In this document: positions 5,226 through 19,875 of the stretch, piece after piece
Layout: each line of letters opens with the position of its first letter
Numbering within the stretch: the stretch's first letter is position 1
From: Candidatus Nanopelagicales bacterium
GTDB lineage: Bacteria > Actinomycetota > Actinomycetes > S36-B12
Assembly (NCBI GenBank): GCA_044336815.1
Contig: JBIIOU010000001.1
Coordinates: 1,208-65,207 of the forward strand
Length of the DNA stretch: 64,000 nt
Direction of reading: 5' to 3'
Notes under the pieces: model-generated
Told to the model about the DNA's origin: nothing
Seen by the model: the letters and a program-made list of their open reading frames with translations, nothing else
Databases searched by the model: none
Made by a program: the position numbers and the translations under genes

Positions 5226-6089
5226 GTGATGCACAGGTTTGATTGCAACGCGCTCGTGAGTCCGATCGCACTCGCCATGGCGATAACGCTCGCCAGCCTC
5301 GGTGCGCAGCCCGCCCAAGCCGACTCGCGTAAACCCGCTGACATGGTGCTAAATTCCTTGCCGGTTTCGGTTGAAATGGCATCGGGCTATTCACGCTCAC
5401 TATTTCGACATTGGACTGATGGTGACGGCAACGGTTGCGATGCCCGCAAGGATGTATTAATTGAAGAAGCTACAGCTGGTCGAGTAGTAGGTTGCACCGT
5501 GGTGGGTGGTGTGTGGCAGTCCGTTTATGACGGCGTTAGCACCTCAAACTCGAGCACTTTCGATGTTGACCATCGGATACCACTTAAAGAGGCTTGGGAT
5601 TCTGGTGCTTGGCGGTGGTCTGCATCGACTCGTGAGGCATTTGCGAATGATCTGGGATTCGCGGATTCACTCATCGCGGTGAGTGCTTCATCCAATAGGT
5701 CAAAGTCCGATCGTGATCCGGCCGAATGGTTACCGAAATACGAGGTATGCACTTATGCAAAAACCTGGATTGCGGTTAAGTACCGGTGGCGGCTCGCGGT
5801 CGATACCACCGAGAAGTCAGCGCTGCAGCGAATTATCGGATCATGCCCAGGGCTCATGCTGGTACCTGACCTAGCGAGTATCAATACAGATCCGAGTGCC
5901 GCCCGCCCGAACTCGTCAGCGCCAGCCCCGACGGAGCCGATGGCTCCCACTGGTGGCGCAACCGACCCGCGCTTTCGCACCTGCGGTGAAGCGATCGCAG
6001 CTCGATACGGACCCTACCTAGTTGGCCGCGACGAGGAATACTCCTGGTACATCGATCGTGACAAAGACGGAGTCGTCTGCGAACGCTAG
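5226..6089 (+). CDS. Secreted DUF1524 (GmrSD C-terminal, HNH-like) nuclease fused to a C-terminal Excalibur calcium-binding domain
   Basis: Signal peptide ending AQPAQA. DUF1524-type motifs DVDHRIPLKEAW and LIAVSASSNRSKSDRDPAEWLP. C-terminal CGEA...YIDRDKDGVVCE matches the Excalibur DxDxDGxxCE signature. Confidence 0.8.
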   Translation: MMHRFDCNALVSPIALAMAITLASLGAQPAQADSRKPADMVLNSLPVSVEMASGYSRSLFRHWTDGDGNGCDARKDVLIEEATAGRVVGCTVVGGVWQSVYDGVSTSNSSTFDVDHRIPLKEAWDSGAWRWSASTREAFANDLGFADSLIAVSASSNRSKSDRDPAEWLPKYEVCTYAKTWIAVKYRWRLAVDTTEKSALQRIIGSCPGLMLVPDLASINTDPSAARPNSSAPAPTEPMAPTGGATDPRFRTCGEAIAARYGPYLVGRDEEYSWYIDRDKDGVVCER

Positions 6090-7201: not shown

Positions 7202-8698
7202 ATGACCTACACCTCGGTGAATCCAGCCGCGTTCAGCGAAGTTATTGCTACTTTGTCACTTGCTAGCGCGGCCGAGGTCGTCGAAAACTGCCGGATAGCC
7301 CACGATGCCCAGCTCGGTTGGGCAGCTGTCCCTGCGCCGGCGCGCGGCCGAGTGATCGCTCAGGTTGGGCGCCTTGTGGAGGCAAATAAAGAGGCTCTCG
7401 CCAGCCTTGTTGCCCGCGAGATCGGCAAGGTCTACGCGGAGGCTCTCGGTGAGGTGCAGGAAGTAATCGATACCTGCGATTTCTTCTTGGGTGAAGGCCG
7501 CCGTATGTACGGCCAGACCATCCCAAGTGAAATGCCCGATAAACAGTTGTTCACTTTCCGAAATCCAGTTGGTTCAGTCGTGATAATCACGGCCGCGAAT
7601 TTCCCCGCGGCCGTACCATCTTGGTATTTCATCCCTGCGTTACTCACCGGCAACTCGGTGGTATGGAAACCCGCCGAGCAAGCGGGTGCTATTGCCCTGG
7701 CGATTACTGAACTCCTGCACGCTGGGGGAGTGCCTAAGGATGTGCTGCGGGTAGTAATCGCAGATGGTGAGGCAACTTTTGCTGGGCTCGAGGCGGCTCT
7801 TGACGCAGGATTTGTTGACAAGATCGGATTCACTGGATCAACAGCGGTGGGCCGCAAACTTGGTGAACTCGCTGGGAGGCATTTGCAATCACCGTGCCTA
7901 GAGTTAGGTGGCAAGAACCCGATGGTGGTTATGCCCGACGCAGACATTGATCTAGTAGTCGAAGGGGCATTGTTTGCTGGGTTCGGCACAGCTGGCCAGC
8001 GTTGCACCTCACTCGGCACTCTCTGGTTGCATCGATCAATTCACGATACGGTTTTGGCGAGATACGCTGACGCGGTCTCGAATGCGGCTGTCGGTGATCC
8101 GTTTGCCGACGTACTTTATGGGCCTGTGATTGATGAGAAGTATTTAGTCGATCACCTACGAAATCTGGAGTTGATTCAGTCTCACCACCGTGTTCTTGGT
8201 TCCACCGGCGTCGGGCAAATTACCAAGACCAACCCAAGGGCGGGGTTCGTCGGCGACCCTATGACGGGGTGGTTCGCGCACCCAACCATCGTTGCTGGGG
8301 TGCGCCCTGGAGATGCGCTTTACGAGAATGAGACTTTTGGCCCATTGGTAGGCGTGGGCGTTTTCGATTCGCTGGACGAGGCTATTGAGTTAGCGAACGG
8401 ACACGGTTACGGGTTATCAAGTGCGCTCTATTCCAATGATCCAAAGACGATTTGGCGGTTCCGCGAGGGCATCAGTGCCGGCATGCTTTCGATAAATAAT
8501 TCGACGTCGGGTGCAGAAGCCCATTTGCCGTTTGGTGGCAACGGTAAAAGCGGTAACGGCTCTAGGCAAAGTGGTATTTGGGTGCTAGACCAGTTCACCC
8601 GATGGCAAGCAATGAATTGGGATTACAGCGGGAAATTGCAAAAGGCACAGATGGACGTAATTGATCTACCGCATGATCCAGACTTTAAAATCACCTAG
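7202..8698 (+). CDS. Aldehyde dehydrogenase family protein (ALDH7/piperideine-6-carboxylate dehydrogenase-like)
   Basis: ELGGKNP and FGTAGQRCTS catalytic motifs; C-terminal SGAEAHLPFGGNGKSGNGSRQSG. ATG 7202 is chosen because the ORF-track extension (7031) runs antisense into the L,D-transpeptidase gene. Confidence 0.85.
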   Translation: MTYTSVNPAAFSEVIATLSLASAAEVVENCRIAHDAQLGWAAVPAPARGRVIAQVGRLVEANKEALASLVAREIGKVYAEALGEVQEVIDTCDFFLGEGRRMYGQTIPSEMPDKQLFTFRNPVGSVVIITAANFPAAVPSWYFIPALLTGNSVVWKPAEQAGAIALAITELLHAGGVPKDVLRVVIADGEATFAGLEAALDAGFVDKIGFTGSTAVGRKLGELAGRHLQSPCLELGGKNPMVVMPDADIDLVVEGALFAGFGTAGQRCTSLGTLWLHRSIHDTVLARYADAVSNAAVGDPFADVLYGPVIDEKYLVDHLRNLELIQSHHRVLGSTGVGQITKTNPRAGFVGDPMTGWFAHPTIVAGVRPGDALYENETFGPLVGVGVFDSLDEAIELANGHGYGLSSALYSNDPKTIWRFREGISAGMLSINNSTSGAEAHLPFGGNGKSGNGSRQSGIWVLDQFTRWQAMNWDYSGKLQKAQMDVIDLPHDPDFKIT

Positions 8699-8706
8699 TC
8701 CTGCGT

Positions 8707-10257
8707 TTAGGCGCGCGACTCAAACATCCCAAATAGCGCGGCGATACCAAGTACCGAACGTGGTGAATACGCGGCTCGCCAGAGCCCACCATGGTTTGCT
8801 CCCTGTACGAAAAGCTCCATTGGGTTTTGCAATTCGGTAGCGGGATTCGCCGTAGCACTCGGATTTCTTAGGTCGTGCACCAACAATGCGGCCATCAAAG
8901 TGGTTGAAGTTGCTGGCTCGAAGACTTCTATGCCGAATCTTCCTGCGCCAGCATACGCGGAAGCGAGAGCACGACTCTTTACTACAGATTGTGTCCGCGT
9001 TGCGGGGGCTAGATTGATTGATACCGGTGTACCGGTCGAACGTGCTACCAATGCACGCCATCTTTGGAGGCGCTTTGCGAGTGCATAGTTGGCGCCCTGC
9101 TGCGAGATTAAGGAGTCGTTAAGCCCGACTTCTGTGCCGTCACCGGCGAAAATAGTTTGTTGGTAATTAGGCTCAAACTGTTTGAGGGTGCGCAGAGGAG
9201 TCTGGAGCAGCCCACTAAGGCCTCGGGCATCCCAGCGCCGACGTGATTCAAGGACAACTTCGAGGGGAACCATAAAAGTGTCGGTGGGTGTGGCGAGGTA
9301 GGCAAGGGAAATGTCACGGCTGCTACCGAGTAAGTCGGCAACCACTGCGTCGGCCGCCATTGACAGGAGCACATGTTGTGATCCGTCAGCGTATGCGTAT
9401 GTACCAAGCACGAATGGTTGCCTGATTTCAGCGAGCCAAGTACGAACTTCAGGGGCGCGGGTAAGCAAATTCGCCCCGGCTACATTGGCGATCGCGAGAT
9501 CATCTTCTGGGTGTACCAAGCCATCTACAACTAGCGGCGGGTTGCCGTCAGCATCGAGCTCAATTGGAATTCGTATTGAACCGGCCGTGCTTCGGGCAAT
9601 GTCAATGAGCCGCTGCCAAATTGCGGGCCGTTGCAGGTCGACCGCGTGCACGGTCGCTCCCCAACGCAGGAGTGATCTGATTGGGCCCATTTCGGCTCCG
9701 GCGCCTAACAGCGCGATGTCGACCCCACGCAGATCGAGCCAATCTGGGTTATCCAGCACCAGGTGAATGGCTTCACCGAAACTTGGTTCGGCAATGCCAT
9801 CGTCGACCCATTTGTCGACTTGGTCTCGCAAGTGCCTGCCAAATAGCCGCCTCCCGTGATAGGGCAACGACAGGTCGGACTCCAACTGTGCTGCACCTTG
9901 AACCTGTACCGAGCCAAAGCCAGAGGCAGAAAATGTCGCCATTGCTTCGCCTAAGTTCAACTCCTGGCCATCGCGGCCAAAGCGAAAACGCCGATGCGCA
10001 GAGTCCAAGCCGTCACTTGAGACCTGCAACGCAGCGGCAGGTGTCATGGTTGCCGCCGCGACGATGTCACGTATTGGAGTTAGGTATCCCGATCGCCAAT
10101 CGCGGGTGTGCTCAATGCGCTCGGCAAGTGATGAATCCACTCCGCGAACACAATCAGCGAAGATCGCCCGCCCGGTTGCGCTTGTGCTGCGTTTGCCATC
10201 ACCGCCCGCAGGGAAGCAAACCCCCTCGGGAGTTTGGTAGTCTGAGTTCACTGGCAC
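8707..10257 (-). CDS. Uncharacterised ~516-aa protein with a central Rossmann-type nucleotide (NAD or SAM)-binding signature
   Basis: DIALLGAGAEMGPIRSLLRWGATVHAVDL is a GxGxxG ... acidic residue at the end of beta-2. GTG 10257 lies 13 nt downstream of the decarboxylase stop. The ORF-track start 10545 would overlap that gene by 275 nt. I recognise no family. Confidence 0.55.
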   Translation of the reverse strand: MPVNSDYQTPEGVCFPAGGDGKRSTSATGRAIFADCVRGVDSSLAERIEHTRDWRSGYLTPIRDIVAAATMTPAAALQVSSDGLDSAHRRFRFGRDGQELNLGEAMATFSASGFGSVQVQGAAQLESDLSLPYHGRRLFGRHLRDQVDKWVDDGIAEPSFGEAIHLVLDNPDWLDLRGVDIALLGAGAEMGPIRSLLRWGATVHAVDLQRPAIWQRLIDIARSTAGSIRIPIELDADGNPPLVVDGLVHPEDDLAIANVAGANLLTRAPEVRTWLAEIRQPFVLGTYAYADGSQHVLLSMAADAVVADLLGSSRDISLAYLATPTDTFMVPLEVVLESRRRWDARGLSGLLQTPLRTLKQFEPNYQQTIFAGDGTEVGLNDSLISQQGANYALAKRLQRWRALVARSTGTPVSINLAPATRTQSVVKSRALASAYAGAGRFGIEVFEPATSTTLMAALLVHDLRNPSATANPATELQNPMELFVQGANHGGLWRAAYSPRSVLGIAALFGMFESRA

Positions 10258-10270
10258 AACTGCAGAATAC

Positions 10271-11695
10271 CTATTTGGTTGGCGGGTGATCGTGCGGCCC
10301 AATGGAGCCGAGTTCGTCTGCGACCTCGAGGGTGATGTCGACGTCCGCCATCGTTGTTCGGAAATTGGTAAAACAGGGCCGCAGCCAAACCTGTCCATCG
10401 ATAGTTGCTGGTGAGATGTAGACCCGGCCGTCACGCTGCATCCGAGCGCAAACATCGAGATTGTGCGCATCAAGGTCGGTGCAACCTGGCAACACATGTC
10501 GAAACGGCACAATTGACAATTGCGGTGGTGACGCCAGTACTTCAAAGCGTGGGTGGGCGCTGGCTGAACGATAAAGGTGCTGTGCTTGCTCGCAATTCTC
10601 GGCTATTGCCGCTCGAAATGCTTGGGCACCGTGAACGCGCAGCGCCAGCCATAACTTCATGGCACGCAGGGGCCGTGAGTACTCCAAAGTTATGTCGACC
10701 GCATTCAATTCGTCATCCTCGTGTGGGATGTATGCCTCATCATGGGCAAAGGTGCGCGCAAGGGTTTGCGCATCACGAACCAAGACTGCACTGCAGGCTT
10801 TAGGGACGAACATCCACTTATGTGCGTCGACGCTCACTGAGTCAGCGCGCGAAAGTCCAGCGAAGAGCGGTGCGGTTAGCGGTGCGCTGGCGGCGGGTAG
10901 GCCGTAGGCGCCATCGACATGGAGCCAAATACCGAATGACTCGCAGATATCCGCAAGGGCGGCAATTGGGTCCACAGATCCGGTCAGCGTGGTGCCGGCG
11001 GTGGCAATGACAGCAACCGGCGTAACCCCGTTTGCCAAGTCGAGTGCGATCGCTGCGTGAAGTGCCTCAGGTTGCATACGCCGTTGCACGTCAATCGGGA
11101 TATCGCGAACCGCATTGCGTCCAAAACCCAAAAGTTCAGCCGCACGAGTAATTGAATAGTGGGCTTCGGCTGAGCAATAGATCGCGGGTCGAGTGTCACT
11201 TAGCCCAGTTGTGCGGGAACCAGGGAGTGCCCGTTCGCGGGCGGCAGCGAGCGCGGTGATATTGCTGATGGTGCCACCACTGGTGAATGAACCCAAGCGC
11301 GCGGGGAACCCCAAGAAATCAGCCAGCCAGCCGATGGTCTGGGCTTCCAGGCGCGTTGCAGCCCGGGCGTCTAGTGCCAAATTAATGTCGTATGAGTGGG
11401 CGAGGAGATCTGCCAGCGCACCAATCTCGAGTCCGCTTGAGCCGATATAGGCCAAATATCTGGGGCGTGATTGGGCTAGTGAGGCGTCGAGGACATCACC
11501 CGCGGCATCTAGGCTTTCAATGACATTGCTGCCTTGCTCAGATAGCGGTTTGCGTAGTTCATTGATGAGGAGTTCGCTGATTTCGGTCTCAGATTCACGT
11601 GGACTATCGAAATCTCGCCACGCATGGGCAACGAGCGCCGCGGCGTGCTCAAGTGCAGCTTCCCGACTTGCCCCTAATGAGAGCGAATCCTTCAT
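10271..11695 (-). CDS. Group II pyridoxal-phosphate-dependent amino-acid decarboxylase
   Basis: PLP-lysine motif SVSVDAHKWMFVPKACS. Overall DABA/aromatic/glutamate decarboxylase-like layout. Its start overlaps the upstream gene stop (ATGA, 11692-11695). Confidence 0.9.
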   Translation of the reverse strand: MKDSLSLGASREAALEHAAALVAHAWRDFDSPRESETEISELLINELRKPLSEQGSNVIESLDAAGDVLDASLAQSRPRYLAYIGSSGLEIGALADLLAHSYDINLALDARAATRLEAQTIGWLADFLGFPARLGSFTSGGTISNITALAAARERALPGSRTTGLSDTRPAIYCSAEAHYSITRAAELLGFGRNAVRDIPIDVQRRMQPEALHAAIALDLANGVTPVAVIATAGTTLTGSVDPIAALADICESFGIWLHVDGAYGLPAASAPLTAPLFAGLSRADSVSVDAHKWMFVPKACSAVLVRDAQTLARTFAHDEAYIPHEDDELNAVDITLEYSRPLRAMKLWLALRVHGAQAFRAAIAENCEQAQHLYRSASAHPRFEVLASPPQLSIVPFRHVLPGCTDLDAHNLDVCARMQRDGRVYISPATIDGQVWLRPCFTNFRTTMADVDITLEVADELGSIGPHDHPPTK

Positions 11696-12867
11696 CGTTC
11701 CAGCAAATGCTTACGGTAAGGAGCCAGTTCTGCGGTGCGGTCAACGCCGACAACCCCGACCAGGCCGCTTTCATCTGAATACTCAACTATGCAGGCGTCG
11801 TCCGCAGTGCCTTCAACTATCTGGATTGAAGTTGCTAGCCCTGGCATTCCGAATGACTGAAGTTTGTATTGGTACTGGTCGGACCAAAAAGAAGGCATGG
11901 CGGCAAAAGGTGCTTGATCTGGTTGTTCACCGCGTAGAAGTGAGGCGAGTGAGGCACCGGCGCGCCGGCCGGTCTCGGTCGGGATATTCCAATGTTCGAT
12001 GCGCCTGGGGATGTTGCCGAAGAGCGCGTTCGGATGTCGGGCAATGTCGCCGACGGCAACCACTGGCACCTCGGCAGCAACCACCATCGCTTGGTCGACG
12101 AGTAGCCCGTCGGTGAGATCAAGGCCGTTGCCTTCAAGCCACTCCACATTACAAACCGAGCCGACAGCTTCAACAACAACCGACGCGGGTAGCTCGGTGC
12201 CGTCATCGAGTAACACGGAGGTAATGTGCTCTCCTCCAAGGAACGACTGCACGGTTCGGCCGAGGTGGAAGTTCACCCCATGGTGCTCATGGCGTGAACT
12301 CATGCCCATCCCAAGTTCAGCACCCAGCGGTCGCACCATCGGCTGCTCATCAATTGCGACGATATGTACCTCGGCGCCCAGGCCACGTGCCGTCGCCGCC
12401 ACTTCGCACCCAATAAAACCCGCTCCCATAATTACCGCGGTGCGCCCCGGTACTAGGTAGTTGCGCAGGTTCATTGCATCGTGGGCGGTTCGCAGCACGT
12501 GACGACCATTTTCGGGGCCTGCGATAGGCAACCGGCGTGGGCGAATCCCTGAAGCGATGACAAGACCGTCAAATGACAAGTGGGTGCCATCGGCCAAGGT
12601 GACGGTCCGTGCGGCAAAGTCACTTGCGATCGCCGGTGAACCTAGTCGCCAGTCGACGTCGGCGACCGATGGCTTACGGCGAAACTCAAGTTCAGCAACG
12701 TGAACACCCGCTGATAGCGCCTCCTTTGAAAGGGGCGGCCGGTTGTACGGCATTGCTGGCTCATCGCCGACAACGGTGATGGCACCTTCGAAACCGGCAC
12801 CACGAAGGGCCTCGGCTGCTCTTAAGCCACCAAGGCCGGCACCTACTACGAGTACTTTGGCAGTCAT
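11692..12867 (-). CDS. FAD/NAD(P)H-dependent oxidoreductase of the ferredoxin (putidaredoxin/rubredoxin) reductase family
   Basis: Two dinucleotide-binding motifs (VLVVGAGLGGLRAAEAL; AVIMGAGFIGCEVAA) and a C-terminal reductase dimerisation region. Confidence 0.85.
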   Translation of the reverse strand: MTAKVLVVGAGLGGLRAAEALRGAGFEGAITVVGDEPAMPYNRPPLSKEALSAGVHVAELEFRRKPSVADVDWRLGSPAIASDFAARTVTLADGTHLSFDGLVIASGIRPRRLPIAGPENGRHVLRTAHDAMNLRNYLVPGRTAVIMGAGFIGCEVAATARGLGAEVHIVAIDEQPMVRPLGAELGMGMSSRHEHHGVNFHLGRTVQSFLGGEHITSVLLDDGTELPASVVVEAVGSVCNVEWLEGNGLDLTDGLLVDQAMVVAAEVPVVAVGDIARHPNALFGNIPRRIEHWNIPTETGRRAGASLASLLRGEQPDQAPFAAMPSFWSDQYQYKLQSFGMPGLATSIQIVEGTADDACIVEYSDESGLVGVVGVDRTAELAPYRKHLLER

Positions 12868-12901
12868 AACATTGAAATTATTGTCTAGCCGATAGCGATG
12901 C

Positions 12902-12925
12902 CTTGCGGTGGGTCTTGCGGTGGGT
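12902..12925. repeat. Perfect 12-bp tandem direct repeat CTTGCGGTGGGT x2 in the divergent intergenic region
   Basis: Read directly: 12902-12913 and 12914-12925 are identical. Confidence 0.9.
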
Positions 12926-13111
12926 TCGCATCGACTCAGGTGAGTGTTGTCCGTCTAGCTTGCCGCAACCAAGGCAATGACCACGATGCCCTCTGGATGG
13001 AGTGTGGCGGAGCGTCGGTTACGATGAAGTGTGATGAGGCTGGGCGTCGTTTAACCGAAGTCACCGACCGTGGTACCCGTGAAATAACGCATTGGGAGAC
13101 AGTAAATTACC

Positions 13112-13966
13112 TTGACCACATCTAATCGCTACATCTTGACTATCAAGTGCCCAGACCAGGCGGGAATTATTCATCGGGTTTCGGGTGCCCTGATGGCGGT
13201 CGGTGGCAATGTACTGGAGCAGGCGCAGTTCACCGATGAGGATTCAGGTTTTTTCTGCATGCGCACTAAGTTCGAAACACTCAGGGGAGACCTAGAAGCA
13301 TTGACTTCGGTAGTGGTCGACCACGTCAAGAGCCTTGAGCCCGAGTTGACCCTTCGCCGTGAGGCCGATCATCTCCGGGCAATAATTCTTGTTTCAAAGC
13401 ACGACCACTGCTTGCTGGATCTGCTTTACCGATTTGGCAATGGTGAGATGCCTATTGATATTCCAGTGATTGTTTCGAATCATGAGGACTGTCGCGAGAT
13501 TGCTGACAGGTACCACATCCCTTATGTGCACTTGCCGATTACTCCAGATAACAAGGCTGAGCAAGAAGCTAAACTGTTAGACCTGATTGCTGAGCACGTG
13601 ATTGATGTCGTTGTTCTGGCTCGATACATGCAAGTACTATCCGGTGATTTCTGCGACAAGATGCCGGGACGAATAATTAATATTCACCACTCTTTCCTGC
13701 CGGGGTTCAAAGGTGCTCGCCCATACCAGCAAGCGCATGAGCGTGGCGTGAAACTGATTGGAGCCACCGCACACTTTGTCACGGGCGATCTAGACGAGGG
13801 ACCGATCATCGAGCAGAGCGTCGAGCGAGTAAGTCACGCGAATACAGCCGCTGATTTAGTGGAAATCGGACGCGATGTAGAGCGTGTGGTCTTATCCAGA
13901 GCGGTGCGCTTGTTCGCCGAAGACCGAATAATTCTTACCGGTCAGCGAACCGTCGTATTTTCCTAG
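13112..13966 (+). CDS. purU: Formyltetrahydrofolate deformylase
   Basis: N-terminal ACT domain (ILTIKCPDQAGIIHRVSGAL) plus a formyltransferase core (INIHHSFLPGFKGARPYQQA, ATAHFVTGDLDEGPII). TTG start. Confidence 0.9.
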   Translation: MTTSNRYILTIKCPDQAGIIHRVSGALMAVGGNVLEQAQFTDEDSGFFCMRTKFETLRGDLEALTSVVVDHVKSLEPELTLRREADHLRAIILVSKHDHCLLDLLYRFGNGEMPIDIPVIVSNHEDCREIADRYHIPYVHLPITPDNKAEQEAKLLDLIAEHVIDVVVLARYMQVLSGDFCDKMPGRIINIHHSFLPGFKGARPYQQAHERGVKLIGATAHFVTGDLDEGPIIEQSVERVSHANTAADLVEIGRDVERVVLSRAVRLFAEDRIILTGQRTVVFS

Positions 13967-14026: not shown

Positions 14027-15181
14027 GTGAGTGAAATTTCTCCGCTCCTCGATGGCATAGTCGTGGTTTCAGTTGAGCAAGCGATCTCCGCACCGTTCGC
14101 GACGAGGCAACTCGCAGACCTGGGCGCGACTGTTATCAAGGTTGAACGCACCGAAGGTGATTTCGCACGCCACTATGATTCGGTGGTCGAAGGAAATTCG
14201 GCATTCTTCGTATGGGCAAACGTTGGTAAGCAGTCGATCGTTATCGATATGCGCAACCCCGATGACCATGAACTCTTGAAGGCACTAATCGCGGGCTCTG
14301 ACGTATTTATTCATAACATGTCGCCAAGTGCGGCGAAAGGCAGAGGGCTTGACGCTGACACCTTGCGCGCTGAAAAACCAAACTTGATTGTGTGCGAAAT
14401 ATCTGGATATGGCCCAGATGGACCACGAAGTGAAGATAAAGCGTACGACTTAGCTATACAGGCGGAGGCTGGTGCTTTCTCCGTCACCGGCGATGAGAAC
14501 ATGAGCAAGGTTGGTTTCTCGGTGGCAGACATTGCCGCAGGCATGTATGCACTTACTAGCATTCTGGCCTCACTTGTGCGCCGTGATAGGACGGGTGAAG
14601 GTGCCTCCATCCATGTATCCATGCTTGAGGCGCTTGCCGAATGGCTTTCCGCTCCGCTATACGCCGCGGCATACGGTGTCGGCCAGCCTCCGCGGACGGG
14701 CCGTAGGCATCACGCGATAGCGCCTTACGGCACCTTTCACTTGAGTGATGACCGCACTATTTTGATCGCTGTGCAAAGCGACGGAGAGTGGCGGTCATTG
14801 GCCACATCATTATTGGAAGATCCCGCTCTTGGTATAGACCCAAGATTTTTGACCAACAGTAATCGCCTTGCAAATGTTGAGCAGTTGGAATCGCTGATCA
14901 GCGAAAAGTTGGCATCGATTTCAGGAGCGGAGGCGATGGATCGCCTACGCGACGGCCGCATCGCTGTGGCGCGGGTAAATGACCTCACCGGTGTCTGGGC
15001 GCATGAGCAACTTCGCGCACGCGGGCATTTTCACGAGGTGCAGACCGAGCATGGTCCGGTTGAGTTACTTGACCCACCATTTGACATTAGTGGCTGGGTT
15101 CGGCCCCCGAGCGGTGTACCGGGGTTGGGCGAACATGACCCAACGGTTCTGTCCGCCATTATCGAACGCGGCCGCAAGTAG
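14027..15181 (+). CDS. Family III CoA-transferase (CaiB/BaiF family)
   Basis: N-terminal LDGIVVVSVEQAISAPFATRQLADLGATVIKVE is typical of the family. SD AGGAGGG before GTG 14027. Confidence 0.85.
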   Translation: MSEISPLLDGIVVVSVEQAISAPFATRQLADLGATVIKVERTEGDFARHYDSVVEGNSAFFVWANVGKQSIVIDMRNPDDHELLKALIAGSDVFIHNMSPSAAKGRGLDADTLRAEKPNLIVCEISGYGPDGPRSEDKAYDLAIQAEAGAFSVTGDENMSKVGFSVADIAAGMYALTSILASLVRRDRTGEGASIHVSMLEALAEWLSAPLYAAAYGVGQPPRTGRRHHAIAPYGTFHLSDDRTILIAVQSDGEWRSLATSLLEDPALGIDPRFLTNSNRLANVEQLESLISEKLASISGAEAMDRLRDGRIAVARVNDLTGVWAHEQLRARGHFHEVQTEHGPVELLDPPFDISGWVRPPSGVPGLGEHDPTVLSAIIERGRK

Positions 15182-15245: not shown

Positions 15246-16400
15246 TCAGTAGGACTTGGGTAACCCAAGAACATGTTGGCCGAGATATGCGAGCACCAGA
15301 TTGTTGTTAATTGGTGCTACTTGGTACAACCGGGTCTCCCTGAATTTTCGTTCAATGTCATATTCGACGGCGAAACCGAACCCGCCGTGGGTATCCATTG
15401 CGGCATTAGCGGCAGCCCATGATGCTTCGGAGGCAAGTAATTTCGCCATATTTGCCTCACTCGCGCAAGATTTACCGGCATCGTATTTTGCAGCAGCGTC
15501 AAAGCGCACTAGGTCGGCTGCTCTTAGTTGAGCGTACGCCTTGGCAAGGGGGAACTGGACACCCTGATTCGAGCCGATCTGCCGATCGAAAATAATTCGC
15601 TCATTCGCGTATGCCACAGCCTTTTCTAGCAGGTACCTACCGTCGCCTATGCATTCTGAAGCGATCAGGATGCGTTCAGCGTTCATGCCATCAAGGATGT
15701 ACCGAAACCCTTTCCCGGCCTCGCCAATCAGGGCATCAGCAGGGATTACCACATTATCGAAGAAGACCTCGGTGGTGCTGTGGTTGATCATGGTCTTGAT
15801 CGGCTTAATGGTGATGCCGTCGACTTTGCGCATGTCTATTAAAAAGGTTGACAGGCCTTCGGTGGGCTTCGCGCACTCGTCGTACGGGGTAGTTCGGGCC
15901 AGCAGCAACATGAGATCCGAATAAAGCGCGCGTGACGTCCATATCTTCTGCCCGTTGACGCGCCAGCCTTCGGGCACCTTTTCGGCTTTGGTACTAATGC
16001 GAGTTGTCTCGGACCCAGCCCCTGGCTCGGTAACACCGAATGCCTGCAGGCGCAGGCGGCCGGCCGCGATCTCTGGCAGGTACTGCTGTTTTTGTTCGGC
16101 ACTGCCGTGACGCAATACGGTGCCCATTACGTACATCTGCGCGTGGCAAGCAGCTGGGTTGCCACCAGAGGCGGATATCTCTTCGAGGATTACCGATGCC
16201 TCGGTCAAAGTGGCACCGCCGCCGCCATACTGCTCGGGGATCAAGGCACCGAGGAATCCGGCCGCGGTGATGGCTGCTACAAACTCGGTTGGGTAAGTGT
16301 CGGGTTCTAGGCCGCGCCAATATTCGCCCGTGAAGTTAGCGCAAACCTGCCGCACACCTGACCGGAGATCTTCATGCCCAGTGTCTTCGGTCCATTTCAC
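15246..16400 (-). CDS. Acyl-CoA dehydrogenase
   Basis: ACAD N/M/C domain pattern (EQYGGGG, TEPGAGSE, C-terminal YEGTN-like region QVAPINNN). GTG 16400 gives about 384 aa. The longer ORF-track version (to 16679) overlaps the upstream transporter gene. Confidence 0.85.
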   Translation of the reverse strand: MKWTEDTGHEDLRSGVRQVCANFTGEYWRGLEPDTYPTEFVAAITAAGFLGALIPEQYGGGGATLTEASVILEEISASGGNPAACHAQMYVMGTVLRHGSAEQKQQYLPEIAAGRLRLQAFGVTEPGAGSETTRISTKAEKVPEGWRVNGQKIWTSRALYSDLMLLLARTTPYDECAKPTEGLSTFLIDMRKVDGITIKPIKTMINHSTTEVFFDNVVIPADALIGEAGKGFRYILDGMNAERILIASECIGDGRYLLEKAVAYANERIIFDRQIGSNQGVQFPLAKAYAQLRAADLVRFDAAAKYDAGKSCASEANMAKLLASEASWAAANAAMDTHGGFGFAVEYDIERKFRETRLYQVAPINNNLVLAYLGQHVLGLPKSY

Positions 16401-16447
16401 GGTGCTATTTGTACCATGGTGGCTCGAGTGGGGTATGAAAAAGTCAA

Positions 16448-17350
16448 TTATCTGGATCGCTCCGCCAGCACAACGCCAAACAACACTATTAGCGCGCCGA
16501 TTATTTGGACCGGTGTCATTACCTCGCCCAGGGCAAGCCAAGCGATGGCGATAGCGATCAGCGGCTCGATCATTCCGATCACTGAGGCTTGGGAGGCGCG
16601 GATATGCCGCATTGAGTGGACAACTAATAGGAAAGGCACGGTGGTGCCAAGAACGATGAGATAGGTGAGAAGCACCCATATCGGGAACGCGTCATCATCG
16701 GTACCAAGTGGGTAGCCGATCCCGGTGAGACTCGCCCATGGAAACGACCACCAAGGTTGCACAATCGCCCAAAAAGCAGCCGAAGCTCCAAAGCCCCACA
16801 TGGTAAGTGAGACGGCGTCGCGCGGCTGGGCGGACCGCAGTTGCTTATCGGCGAGGACGTAGTAGATAGCGAGTGCGATCGCGGCCCCGAAGCCGGCGGT
16901 GACTCCGACCGCACTGAGCGTGAACCCAAGCCAGACTTGAGCGACCATTGCCAACCCGGTTAAAGCGAGGACGAGGGCTATCCAGACTGATTTTCGGGTC
17001 GCTTGTTTCATGCCGAATCGAAACCAGATCGCCACCATAATTGGCGCCGTGAACTCAATCAACAGGGCGACGCCGACGGGCAGGGTCTGGAGTGCGACGA
17101 AATAGAGGTACTGGGTCATGCCAACGCCAATTACCCCGTAGACAAGTAGTACCGGCAGTTCCTTCTTGGTTATTCGCAGAGCGGCGGGTCGCGTGATTGC
17201 TACCAGAACTAACAGAATCAGAAACGCAGAACTCACCCGAATCTGTGACAACCGCGTAGCTTCAATACCGGTAAGCAGTAGGGACTTAGAGACCGTCCCG
17301 TTTAATGCGAAAAGAAATGCTGCCGCCAGATAAAGCAAATACCCGGTCAT
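16448..17350 (-). CDS. EamA/DMT-superfamily transporter
   Basis: Ten hydrophobic helices. ATG 17350 (MTGYLLYLAAAFLFALNG) avoids overlap with glgA. Confidence 0.8.
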   Translation of the reverse strand: MTGYLLYLAAAFLFALNGTVSKSLLLTGIEATRLSQIRVSSAFLILLVLVAITRPAALRITKKELPVLLVYGVIGVGMTQYLYFVALQTLPVGVALLIEFTAPIMVAIWFRFGMKQATRKSVWIALVLALTGLAMVAQVWLGFTLSAVGVTAGFGAAIALAIYYVLADKQLRSAQPRDAVSLTMWGFGASAAFWAIVQPWWSFPWASLTGIGYPLGTDDDAFPIWVLLTYLIVLGTTVPFLLVVHSMRHIRASQASVIGMIEPLIAIAIAWLALGEVMTPVQIIGALIVLFGVVLAERSR

Positions 17351-17403
17351 CGGGTGCTGCTGCTTCGCTGGTGTGATCCCGGTCAGTGGTTCAGCAAGAT
17401 CGC

Positions 17404-18567
17404 TCACCGATTCAGCACCTGCTGATAAATAGCCACGGTGCGTTCGGCGATGGCGGCCCACCCAAAATCTGATTGGGCGCGGCTGCGACCGGCTGCACCC
17501 ATCGCATTGGCTCGGGATGGGTCGGCAACAAGTGAGTTCACCGCTGCTGCGAAGTCACGTTCAAATCCAGCAGGGTCAAGGGCTTCATATGAAACAAGCA
17601 GGCCGGTTTGGCCGTCAACCACAACTTCTGGGATCCCGCCGACCGCACTGGCAACCACCGCCGTTTGGCAAGCCATGGCCTCTAGGTTGACGATACCGAG
17701 GGGTTCGTAGATGGAAGGGCAAACAAAAGCTAGAGCACTGGAAAAAAGTTTGATCAACGTAGGTATGGCGACTTGTTCCTTTAGCCAAACCACACTGTCG
17801 TCACCGCGTGCTGCCCGGAGCTGCTCAACAGCCTGTGCGGTCTGCGCGGCGATTTCTTCGGTGTCTGGGGACGAGGCGGCCAAGACCAGCACTAAATCAT
17901 CGGAAAAACTGCGGGCCGCGTTGAGCAGATGCACGAGGCCCTTTTGATGCGTTATGCGTCCGACGAAAAGCACATATGGACGGGTGACGTCGATGCCTAG
18001 CTCAGTAAGAGCGATGGGGTCTGGGGTAGGTGAGTAGAGATCAGTGTCGATGCCATTGTGAATGACGTGGACGTTGGCTGGGTCGACAAAAGGGTAGGTG
18101 CTGAGTACATCGGAGCGCATGCCATTGCTGACGGCGATAATGGCATCGGCACCGGCGTAGGCGGTGCTCTCAACCCACGACGAAACTCGGTAGCCGCCGC
18201 CGAGTTGCTCTTGCTTCCAGGGGCGACGTGGTTCAAGGGAGTGAGCGGTCAGAACATGGGGCACGCCGTGCAGCAGGGCGCCCGTGTGCCCGGCAAAATT
18301 CGTGTACCAGGTGTGAGAGTGCAGTAGGTCCAACCCAGCGGTGGCGGCGGCCATTTCGAGGTCGACCCCGAGCACCCCAAGTGCCGGGTTTTCCGCAATG
18401 AGTGCGGCGGGCACCTGGTGGGCGGTGGCATCGGGGCGATCGGGCCCAAAACAATGTACCTCGACATCAACCAAGGGCCGTAAGTGCGCCACTAATTGGT
18501 CCACGTGTACCCCGGCGCCCCCGTAGATCTCCGGGGGCCACTCGCGGGTCAGCATTCCCACCTTCAT
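17404..18567 (-). CDS. glgA: Actinobacterial GT4 glycogen synthase / maltose-1-phosphate synthase (GlgA/GlgM family)
   Basis: MKVGMLTREWPPEIYGGAGVHV N-terminus and GT-B C-terminal EPLGIVNLEAMA motif. It is divergent from glgC, as in mycobacteria. Confidence 0.85.
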   Translation of the reverse strand: MKVGMLTREWPPEIYGGAGVHVDQLVAHLRPLVDVEVHCFGPDRPDATAHQVPAALIAENPALGVLGVDLEMAAATAGLDLLHSHTWYTNFAGHTGALLHGVPHVLTAHSLEPRRPWKQEQLGGGYRVSSWVESTAYAGADAIIAVSNGMRSDVLSTYPFVDPANVHVIHNGIDTDLYSPTPDPIALTELGIDVTRPYVLFVGRITHQKGLVHLLNAARSFSDDLVLVLAASSPDTEEIAAQTAQAVEQLRAARGDDSVVWLKEQVAIPTLIKLFSSALAFVCPSIYEPLGIVNLEAMACQTAVVASAVGGIPEVVVDGQTGLLVSYEALDPAGFERDFAAAVNSLVADPSRANAMGAAGRSRAQSDFGWAAIAERTVAIYQQVLNR

Positions 18568-18651
18568 GACATGAGCATAGGGACTCCGTGAGAACAATCG
18601 TGTCACGCACTTGAGTGAGATCTTCACACGTAAGCGGGTTAAGGTTCGATC

Positions 18652-19875
18652 GTGAGCTCAGGCCCGCACGTCCTCGCCATGGTGCTTGCTGGTGGCGCCG
18701 GTAAACGACTGATGCCACTGACGGCCGACCGAGCGAAGCCAGCGGTGCCCTTTGGTGGCTCCTATCGCCTAATCGATTTCGTACTTTCCAACCTCATTAA
18801 CGCTGGCCTGCGTCGAGTATGCGTACTGACCCAGTACAAGTCACACTCACTGGACCGCCACGTGACTACCACCTGGCGTATGTCGACTCTGCTTGGGGAT
18901 TACGTAACGCCGGTGCCGGCGCAGCAACGCCTTGGACCACGTTGGTATACCGGTAGTGCCGACGCAATATTCCAAAGCTTGAATTTGGTTTATGACGAGC
19001 AGCCTGACTACGTAGTCGTGTTTGGCGCTGATCACGTCTACCGCATGGATCCAATGCAAATGATCGAGGCGCATATTGCCGGAGGTGCTGGAGTGACGGT
19101 GGCTGGCATTCGCATGTCGAAATCGCAGGCGAGCCAGTTTGGTGTCATTGAAGCAGCACCCGATGGCCGCCACATCAAACGTTTCGCAGAGAAGCCGATT
19201 AGTCCGCCGACCATACCCGGCGACGATGAAAATTGCTATGTCTCCATGGGTAACTATGTTTTTTCAACGGATGTGCTCCTAGAAGCTTTGCGAATTGATG
19301 CGGCTGATAGTTCTTCGATTCATGACATGGGAACAAATATCATCCCGATGCTTACCGCCGAAGGCTTGGCGCAAGTTTATGACTTCGCTGCGAATACCGT
19401 ACCGGGTGAGACCGATCGCGATAAGGGCTACTGGCGAGACGTAGGTAGCCTCGACAGTTACCACGATGCGCATATGGATCTTGTATCAGTGCATCCGATT
19501 TTCAATTTGTACAACCGGCGTTGGCCGATTCTCACAAATCTGCCTTCGCTGCCGCCAGCAAAATTTGTTGAGGGAGGCAATGCCCACGATTCCATGGTAG
19601 GCGCCGGCACTGTTATTTCGGGTGCTCACGTTCGGGCTTCGGTTATTTCATCGAGTGTAACTATCGGCACGGGTGCTTATGTGGAAGGCAGTGTGATCAT
19701 GCCCGGCGTGCGCATTGGCCGCGACGCAGTTGTGCGGAGGGCGATCCTTGACAAGAATGTTGTCATTCCCGATGGCGCCCAGGTTGGGGTAGATCTTGAG
19801 CGCGATCGCGGGCTATACACCGTCAGCGATGCTGGCGTCGTTGCCCTCGGCAAAGGGGTCACAGCTGAGCGCTAG
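18652..19875 (+). CDS. glgC: Glucose-1-phosphate adenylyltransferase
   Basis: [30 protein letters not shown]-terminus and a C-terminal left-handed beta-helix region. Confidence 0.92.

Follow-up and report, generated by a model that had tools for sequence, protein, structure and literature searches.

The genes at positions 8707 to 12867 of a 64,000-nucleotide stretch of DNA from Candidatus Nanopelagicales bacterium (GenBank assembly GCA_044336815.1, contig JBIIOU010000001.1, positions 1,208 to 65,207; hereafter the window) code for a ferredoxin-reductase-type flavoprotein, a pyridoxal phosphate (PLP)-dependent decarboxylase and a 516-residue protein for which X516 is used here as a working name. 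It is highly probable that this trio is a mosaic and not a pathway. The full explanation that we favour, which is also probable but carries less assurance, holds that the region consists of two unrelated units joined head to tail: the reductase and decarboxylase genes appear to be the last genes, at the 3′ end, of a catabolic cluster otherwise lost here, and X516 appears to be a resident, vertically conserved actinobacterial core gene without a fixed operon partner.

With respect to the distribution of the three genes, a scan with one genome per GTDB species returned at least 569 loci with an X516 relative, of which 80 were kept for mapping; by record title these are Actinomycetota, except for a few records of metagenome-assembled genomes titled Rubrivirga or Bifidobacterium. 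The reductase gene adjoins X516 in 27 of the 80 loci, and the decarboxylase gene is also present in 16 of these 27, including a frameshifted copy in locus L030. Ten reductase-bearing loci lack the decarboxylase gene, the gap between the reductase gene and X516 then measuring 0 to 118 nt (17 nt in L004, L006 and L009), and in L003 it is reduced to a 431-bp remnant made up of pieces of residues 1 to 78 and 308 to 422. X516 occurs without either partner in 53 of the 80 loci, and in L083 the decarboxylase gene resides among genes for a cytochrome P450, MarR, a glutamine synthetase (GS)-like ligase, C26, an aldehyde dehydrogenase (ALDH), LigB and FAH, with both the reductase gene and X516 absent. 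The three genes, which a first-pass annotation of this DNA had proposed as one orphan operon, are thus not co-conserved as a unit.

In the comparison of the window with L002 and L081, the synonymous divergence (dS) is 0.07–0.15 for the reductase and decarboxylase genes and 0.53–0.66 for X516. Because dS jumps there, a recombination boundary at the junction of the decarboxylase gene and X516 is indicated by these alignments, and the reductase–decarboxylase unit and X516 appear to have separate histories. The same jump suggests a recent recombination event that imported the reductase–decarboxylase segment.

The arrangement of the genes in the window is compact. The reductase gene (11692–12867, minus strand, 391 residues) and the decarboxylase gene (10271–11695, minus strand, 474 residues, stop codon TAG) overlap by the sequence ATGA at 11692–11695, shared between the TGA stop of the former and the ATG start of the latter, and 13 nt separate the decarboxylase stop from the GTG start of X516 at 10257 (8707–10257, minus strand, stop codon at 8707–8709). 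This layout is as first annotated, and an independent gene call in L081, a metagenomic relative that is 91% identical, yields identical gene lengths and the same 13-nt gap. Likewise, the initial domain calls, namely a ferredoxin-reductase-like flavoprotein, a decarboxylase of family PF00282 and a Rossmann-motif protein without a known family, proved correct. A scan for terminator-like sites found none between the three genes, and co-transcription is therefore plausible; scans for tRNAs and with Rfam found no RNA genes. All three genes are intact and, in comparison with relatives, under purifying selection, with ratios of non-synonymous to synonymous substitution (dN/dS) of 0.05–0.12.

The reductase matches the Pfam families Pyr_redox_2 (186.7 bits), Pyr_redox (67.4 bits) and Reductase_C (32.3 bits), and thus has the domain composition of the BphA4/PdR type, i.e., FAD- and NAD-binding Pyr_redox_2 domains plus Reductase_C. 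The FAD motif VVGAGLGG is encoded at 12826–12849 and the NAD motif IMGAGFIGCE at 12403–12432, and the top matches among PDB sequences are BphA4, rubredoxin reductase and putidaredoxin reductase with 165–178 bits. No gene for a ferredoxin, P450 or Rieske protein as a cognate partner was found anywhere in the 64-kb window, and neither an open reading frame (ORF) nor a remnant of a ferredoxin gene was found upstream of the reductase gene. In 19 related loci, a gene for a 63-residue ferredoxin of family Fer4_15 lies directly 5′ of the reductase gene, with a P450 gene nearby. The protein is therefore best read as a putative NAD(P)H:ferredoxin reductase serving a class I P450 system.

The context from which the reductase and decarboxylase genes probably derive is found in relatives of the window. 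According to gene calls and Pfam matches, the gene order in L082, from a 3.7-Mb genome, is P450, MarR, C26 gamma-glutamyl hydrolase, ALDH, LigB, FAH, the 63-residue Fer4_15 ferredoxin, reductase, decarboxylase and X516, and the cluster genes are likewise present in L001, L003, L004, L006, L009, L015, L016, L030, L037 and others. Genes for a P450, a glutamine-synthetase-like ligase and a C26 hydrolase recur near the ferredoxin–reductase pair. In related freshwater actinobacteria the whole cluster runs from the GS-like gamma-glutamyl ligase through the amidotransferase/C26 hydrolase, the P450, MarR, the HpaE-like ALDH, the HpaD-like extradiol dioxygenase (LigB) and the HpaG-like FAH hydrolase to the small ferredoxin, the reductase and the decarboxylase. 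The best NCBIfam models for the ALDH, LigB and FAH proteins of the cluster are HpaE, HpaD and HpaG, respectively, all scoring below their cut-offs, and the ligase resembles gamma-glutamylputrescine synthetase, again below the equivalog cut-off. A fuller variant occupies positions 1–15431 of L083 and comprises genes for an amino-acid permease, a P450, a Fer2-domain protein, an ALDH, a GS-like ligase, two C26 hydrolases, MarR, the decarboxylase, HpaE-, HpaD- and HpaG-like proteins and a protein of the MppR/acetoacetate-decarboxylase family.

The cluster combines elements of known systems: class I P450 electron transfer, amine catabolism by gamma-glutamylation, as in the Ipu pathway for isopropylamine in Pseudomonas and the Puu pathway for putrescine, and homoprotocatechuate (Hpa) meta-cleavage. 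Shared with these are the GS-like ligase, the C26 hydrolase, the P450, the ferredoxin, the reductase and the HpaE/HpaD/HpaG-like genes. However, the Hpa-like and Puu-like matches all stay under the NCBIfam equivalog cut-offs, and the window keeps only the reductase and decarboxylase genes. We know of no PLP decarboxylase in the textbook Ipu, Puu and Hpa pathways.

In the window the cluster has been replaced by a short junction. Nucleotide alignment by blastn places window positions 13085–13965, which include purU, at L004 238–1118, and window positions 11677–12912 at L004 8768–10002; therefore, approximately 7.65 kb with the genes for the ligase, the amidotransferase, the P450, MarR, ALDH, LigB, FAH and the ferredoxin are missing between purU and the reductase gene. 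The deletion site relative to L003 and L004 is the intergenic junction at 12868–13111, of which positions 12913–13084 have no counterpart in L004. Its far side is marked by the divergent purU gene for formyltetrahydrofolate deformylase (13112–13966, plus strand; NCBIfam PRK06027 with 387 bits against a cut-off of 223), which is syntenic with L003 and L004. The junction, for which Rfam gave no match, also contains two copies of the direct repeat CCCACCGCAAG and a plus-strand ORF of 75 codons (12898–13125) of doubtful reality.

The decarboxylase is a full-length match to PF00282 (212.7 bits against a gathering cut-off of 27), with the PLP-lysine motif SVDAHKW (K293) encoded at 10814–10834. It shares the PF00282 span and the HK motif with the group II PLP decarboxylases acting on aromatic L-amino acids, 2,4-diaminobutyrate (DABA), lysine (DfoJ) and cysteine sulfinate, but falls under every equivalog cut-off: its top NCBIfam model, DABA decarboxylase (NF052646), gives 214.1 bits against a cut-off of 900, and the PanP model 167 bits against 606. 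The nearest solved structures are bacterial 3,4-dihydroxyphenylalanine (DOPA) and tryptophan decarboxylases (7xin, 4obu; 190–213 bits), followed by DfoJ, and annotation pipelines name the homologues ‘aromatic-L-amino-acid decarboxylase’. Roles in polyamine, siderophore or ectoine-type metabolism were considered and rejected, the partner genes being absent and the scores remaining below the equivalog cut-offs. In the intact cluster, the reductase would pass electrons from NAD(P)H via the ferredoxin to the P450, and the decarboxylase would most likely turn an aromatic amino acid into the amine as the entry step of a route that may combine gamma-glutamylation, P450 oxidation and homoprotocatechuate-like ring cleavage of an aromatic amine or amino acid. 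The removal of about 7.65 kb with all these partners has brought the reductase gene up against purU in the present genome.

The third gene belongs to a different and much larger assemblage. More than 5400 homologues of X516 were found in a collection of 5.8 billion proteins, all of them unnamed and devoid of Pfam domains, and searching 1.84 billion cluster representatives with a profile yielded 2147 X516 clusters at 50% identity. X516 has no match in Pfam or NCBIfam, and no match among PDB sequences was obtained either with the single sequence or with a profile, in agreement with the earlier statement that no family could be recognised; 92 diverse members likewise remained without any Pfam match at E ≤ 10, including adh_short, adh_short_C2 and KR. 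The gene is kept even in very small Nanopelagicales genomes. A conserved operon partner was sought in distant actinomycetes (Phycicoccus, Pedococcus and Longivirga) and rejected, as the neighbours of X516 there are unrelated housekeeping genes coding for PEPCK, GH43, GlnE, a P-type ATPase, MalQ, a DEAD helicase, Usp and a lactate permease. No paper on the X516 family, on its fusion to PTPLA described below or on the gene trio turned up in the open-access literature that could be searched.

As far as can be predicted from an AlphaFold2 (AF2) model of good quality (pLDDT 81, pTM 0.85), X516 has three parts: an N-terminal domain that matches no known fold, a Rossmann domain for dinucleotide binding, and a C-terminal region that is conserved. 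The N-terminal domain (residues 1–176, encoded at 9730–10257 on the minus strand), modelled separately with a pLDDT of 82, gave in a Foldseek search of the PDB a best E-value of 0.42 with a TM below 0.2 and thus no known fold. The dinucleotide-binding fingerprint LLGAGAEMGPIRSLLRWGATVHAVDL (residues 183–208, 9634–9711, minus strand), which had already been noticed in the initial reading, comprises beta1, the loop G185-x-G-x-x-x-G191-P, a helix and beta2 ending in D207. G185 is invariant across the family, and A186, P192 and D207 are 89–98% conserved in bacterial and eukaryotic members alike. Conserved family-wide are G185-x-G-x-x-x-G-P192, D207, G261, Y289, D303, P324-T-D and D462, together with the longer blocks Q387-G-P-N-Y391-x-x-A-K395-R-x-Q-x-W-R, S413-x-N-x-A-P-x-x-x-T422-x-S and H489-G-G-x-W493. 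The last of these (8779–8793, minus strand) is 90–97% conserved and falls where the model has a low pLDDT, and bacterial members end 23–28 residues after it.

Comparison of structures and profiles points weakly to domains of short-chain dehydrogenases/reductases (SDR) and ketoreductases (KR) as the most similar relatives of the Rossmann domain. The Foldseek search with the complete AF2 model, one of the checks proposed at the outset, returned no well-characterised family and nothing in the PDB at E < 1e-3; at the top of its matches stand SDRs of the FabG type and, from fungi and mycobacteria, the ketoreductase region of type I fatty acid synthase (FAS), at E-values of 2.5e-3 or weaker and TM of 0.2–0.4. 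By hhalign, a 130-sequence X516 profile matches an 11-sequence SDR profile with E-values of about 1e-5 to 6e-5 and probabilities of 64–80%, driven by the beta1-loop-helix-beta2 unit, and residues 175–230 of X516 are paired with residues 2–85 of FabG with high per-column confidence; a shallow X516 profile compared with FabG alone gave nothing. The N-terminal Rossmann fold expected of an SDR, with the glycine-rich loop G185-A-G-x-x-M-G-P192 and with D207 as the cofactor-selecting residue at the end of beta2, is thus present and agrees with the AF2 secondary structure, the loop being GxGxxxG and not TGxxxGxG. Within Q-G-P-N-Y-x-L-A-K-R-x-Q-x-W-R, the sequence Y391-A-L-A-K395 (9073–9087, minus strand) is a candidate SDR-type YxxxK motif, with Y391 invariant, K395 95% conserved and S/T323 conserved as well, and 3′ of it the motif V-S-x-N-x-A-P-x-T-x-T (8986–9024) resembles by eye the VNxxxPGxxxT motif of SDRs. 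X516 has in common with the SDR ketoacyl reductases (FabG, the KR of type I FAS and KAR/IFA38) the glycine-rich loop and the Asp at the end of beta2, and its conserved segments N-Y-x-x-x-K and V-x-x-N-x-A-P-x-x-x-T are candidate counterparts of theirs. In contrast to these enzymes, it is undetected by the Pfam SDR and KR models, has a GxGxxxG loop, would need an insertion of about 55 residues between beta5 and the YxxxK helix, and adds both the 176-residue N-terminal domain and the conserved HGGxW region at the C-terminus.

A link to fatty-acid elongation emerges from the eukaryotic members of the family, which share 35–43% identity with the bacterial ones. Relatives of X516 occur in choanoflagellates, kinetoplastids, amoebozoans, diatoms, brown algae, dinoflagellates and chytrids, and, of the best 150 cluster representatives, roughly one in four is a protein of 630–800 residues in which X516 is joined to PTPLA (PF04387), i.e., the very-long-chain 3-hydroxyacyl-CoA dehydratase HACD/Phs1. 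The PTPLA parts score E-values of 1e-30 to 1e-47, and a rough count in 271 proteins places PTPLA at the N-terminus in about 78 and at the C-terminus in 14. Named eukaryotic sources are Salpingoeca, Bodo saltans, Neobodo, Thecamonas trahens, Arcella, Seminavis, Triparma, a dinoflagellate and the chytrid Nowakowskiella, and unfused copies are found in Ectocarpus, Chrysoparadoxa, Creolimax and Vannella; where eukaryotic members carry a name, it derives from the PTPLA part alone. Unfused eukaryotic members have a hydrophobic tail anchor of about 20 residues after HGGxW, in contrast to the bacterial proteins, which lack it. In the fusions, eukaryotic X516 is physically linked to the dehydratase that acts after KAR in the elongation cycle.

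HACD forms a stable complex with the reductase TECR (PMC13464631). The HACD–TECR complex of the fatty-acid elongase in the endoplasmic reticulum is one of the closest known counterparts; in many protists X516 is fused to HACD or tail-anchored. However, TECR is a polytopic membrane protein of the steroid-5-alpha-reductase family and X516 a Rossmann protein, and none of the 80 bacterial loci has a PTPLA gene near X516: a tblastn search of the window and these loci with PTPLA domains found nothing below an E-value of 0.8. To our knowledge, bacteria with X516 have no ELO-type elongase.

On the basis of the domain fusion to HACD and the weak fold and profile similarity, X516 may catalyse an NAD(P)(H)-dependent oxidation or reduction of an acyl-CoA-type substrate next to 3-hydroxyacyl dehydration, a role that we consider possible with a probability just short of even. 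The protein would be soluble or peripheral and would catalyse the interconversion of 3-oxoacyl and 3-hydroxyacyl compounds or, less likely, an enoyl reduction, and the Asp at the end of beta2 would favour NAD(H) over NADPH. A more far-reaching proposal, which we regard as doubtful, is that the whole family represents an unrecognised Rossmann reductase or dehydrogenase of acyl-CoA metabolism with a new N-terminal fold, ancient enough to be found in Actinomycetota and most eukaryotic supergroups. It would in protists be bifunctional together with HACD, either as an alternative reductase for ketoacyl- or enoyl-CoA in the elongation cycle or as a membrane-bound hydratase/dehydrogenase pair, and would in actinobacteria carry out a housekeeping lipid reaction.

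Other explanations of the locus have to be weighed against the mosaic. That the reductase, the decarboxylase, X516 and the ALDH gene next to it form a single dedicated operon for a small metabolite derived from an amine or amino acid, as was first suggested, is very improbable. The shared strand, the ATGA overlap, the 13-nt gap and the absence of a terminator-like site between the genes all fit such an operon, as do the occurrence of the trio in 16 of 80 loci and the purifying selection on all three genes; however, X516 stands without both partners in 53 of 80 loci, the decarboxylase gene is missing or degraded in 11 of the 27 reductase loci and occurs without the other two in L083, the reductase has a ferredoxin/P450 context in relatives, and dS shifts across the decarboxylase/X516 junction. 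The ALDH gene is moreover convergent and pairs with a gene for an oxidase of the DAO family in relatives, so that it has to be removed from the proposed pathway and assigned to a separate DAO–ALDH pair. What survives of the orphan amine pathway is the link to amine or amino-acid metabolism, which is reasonable for the decarboxylase and the reductase and does not extend to the three genes plus ALDH as a unit. It is likewise unlikely, to a lesser degree, that reductase and X516 constitute a functional pair in Nanopelagicales, connected by electron supply or removal or by a shared substrate, with the decarboxylase as an optional addition. This pairing would account for the position of the reductase gene immediately 5′ of X516 or of decarboxylase–X516 in 27 of 27 loci, irrespective of whether EamA or the Hpa-like cluster lies upstream, for the short gaps of 0–118 nt (L004, L006 and L009 all having 17 nt) where the decarboxylase gene is absent, and for the persistence of reductase–X516 in the window although the ferredoxin and P450 of the reductase are gone. 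However, an adjacent reductase gene is missing in 53 of 80 X516 loci, including every distant actinomycete sampled, no reductase-type partner of the eukaryotic members was seen in the family searches made, and the gene directly before that of the reductase codes in 19 loci for a ferredoxin of the kind typical of P450 systems; the adjacency would be explained equally well if the cluster had been inserted into the EamA–X516 slot.

As regards X516 itself, a glycine-rich loop followed by an acidic end of beta2 would also suit a methyltransferase dependent on S-adenosylmethionine (SAM), or another adenosine-nucleotide-binding enzyme acting on lipids, in place of an NAD(P) oxidoreductase. Class I methyltransferases are indeed among the weak Foldseek matches (5wcj, 3fuv, 3ssm, 3fpj and 7d8u), and the model contains a short beta5–beta6 hairpin (316–320, 327–331). 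Yet their Foldseek probabilities are 0.1–0.4 as compared to up to 0.99 for the SDR/KR matches, the sequence lacks the acidic residue of motif I two positions before the first glycine, and both the X516–SDR profile comparison (E about 1e-5) and the motifs N-Y-x-x-x-K and V-x-x-N-x-A-P-x-T-x-T are SDR-like; such an enzyme is accordingly improbable.

A number of points also weigh against the mosaic explanation and the roles that it assigns. The reductase and decarboxylase genes are intact and under selection, so that this lineage would seem to make some use of both proteins still; genes for a P450 and a ferredoxin could be present elsewhere in the genome, outside the window. The reductase gene stands directly upstream of the decarboxylase gene or X516 in all 27 loci that have it, whatever precedes it, which leaves room for a functional link between reductase and X516. 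The similarity to SDRs is weak, with no matches to Pfam adh_short or KR at E ≤ 10 and TM of only 0.2–0.4. Unforced, hhalign puts Y289 and not Y391 at the position of the catalytic tyrosine, and T323, Y391 and K395 align with S138, Y151 and K155 of FabG only when residues 328–383 are removed, with a score no better than that of control deletions. As PTPLA is absent from the window and from the 80 loci, the eukaryotic fusion partner is not directly transferable to bacteria, and the enzymatic roles of all three proteins are inferred from sequence throughout.

With respect to the surroundings, the closest matches of the window are freshwater Candidatus Nanopelagicales (acI) actinobacteria, and its G + C content is about 56%; positions 1–2000 have a G + C content of 65%, compared to about 56% in the remainder. 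The ALDH7-like aldehyde dehydrogenase gene (7202–8698, plus strand; PF00171 with 412 bits) lies outside the unit and, as first described, is convergent and ends 8 nt from the stop codon of X516. Its probable start is the ATG at 7202, giving a protein of about 498 residues rather than the 555 of the maximal ORF, and its top NCBIfam model is L-piperidine-6-carboxylate dehydrogenase, with 336 bits below the cut-off of 730. In L081 (3241–4392), L002 and L003, a gene for a DAO-family FAD oxidase lies between X516 and the ALDH gene; it is absent from L004 and from the window, which is why only 8 nt (8699–8706) separate the two genes here. The DAO and ALDH7-like proteins look like a catabolic pair of the pipecolate/lysine type.

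On the other side, the backbone of the locus is formed by genes for an EamA transporter (16448–17461, minus strand, cluster c5), a GT4 glycosyltransferase (17404–18627, minus strand, cluster c4) and a GlgC-like nucleotidyltransferase (18652–19875, plus strand, cluster c3). The order glgC(−), GT4(+), EamA(+) and X516(+), the last either directly or after reductase/decarboxylase, recurs in some 30 of the 80 loci, among them L056 of Longivirga aurantiaca, and this backbone with X516 is often followed by the convergent DAO-oxidase/ALDH7-like pair. In the window, purU and genes for a family III CoA-transferase (14027–15181) and an acyl-CoA dehydrogenase (15246–16679) separate the EamA–GT4–glgC backbone from the reductase gene. 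Many relatives have EamA immediately before the reductase gene or X516; the EamA–X516 interval therefore looks like a hotspot of gene gain and loss.

In about 12 Nanopelagicales loci (L082 at 8442–11632, and L005, L007, L008, L012, L015, L027, L030, L031, L033, L037 and L051), a same-strand gene for a thiamine pyrophosphate (TPP)-dependent enzyme is located 3′ of X516, overlapping it by 4 nt in L082; it is not next to X516 in the window. The best NCBIfam model of this enzyme is 5-guanidino-2-oxopentanoate decarboxylase (272 bits, cut-off 500), with 2-hydroxyacyl-CoA lyase among the weaker matches, and its adjacency to X516 looks like local backbone synteny only. Finally, the gene at 5226–6089 (plus strand) codes for a protein with a GmrSD_C domain (a DUF1524-type HNH nuclease) and, at its C-terminus, an Excalibur calcium-binding domain; many related loci have a conserved copy close by, and in L081 a small gene with an Imm_superinfect domain adjoins it.

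Taken as an operon, the three genes are ordinary: in this streamlined actinobacterium of freshwater, what appears to be left of a catabolic island adjoins a core gene, and the locus shows that tight gene packing is able to mimic a pathway. The valuable part is X516, which stands for thousands of sequences without coverage in Pfam, NCBIfam or the PDB and appears to represent an undescribed family of Rossmann proteins whose link to fatty-acid elongation in eukaryotes was unexpected. Soluble bacterial orthologues from cultured Phycicoccus, Pedococcus and Longivirga should be suitable for biochemistry, and the repeated fusion of X516 to HACD leads to the concrete and testable hypothesis that the family may be an enzyme of fatty-acyl-CoA metabolism that has so far escaped notice.

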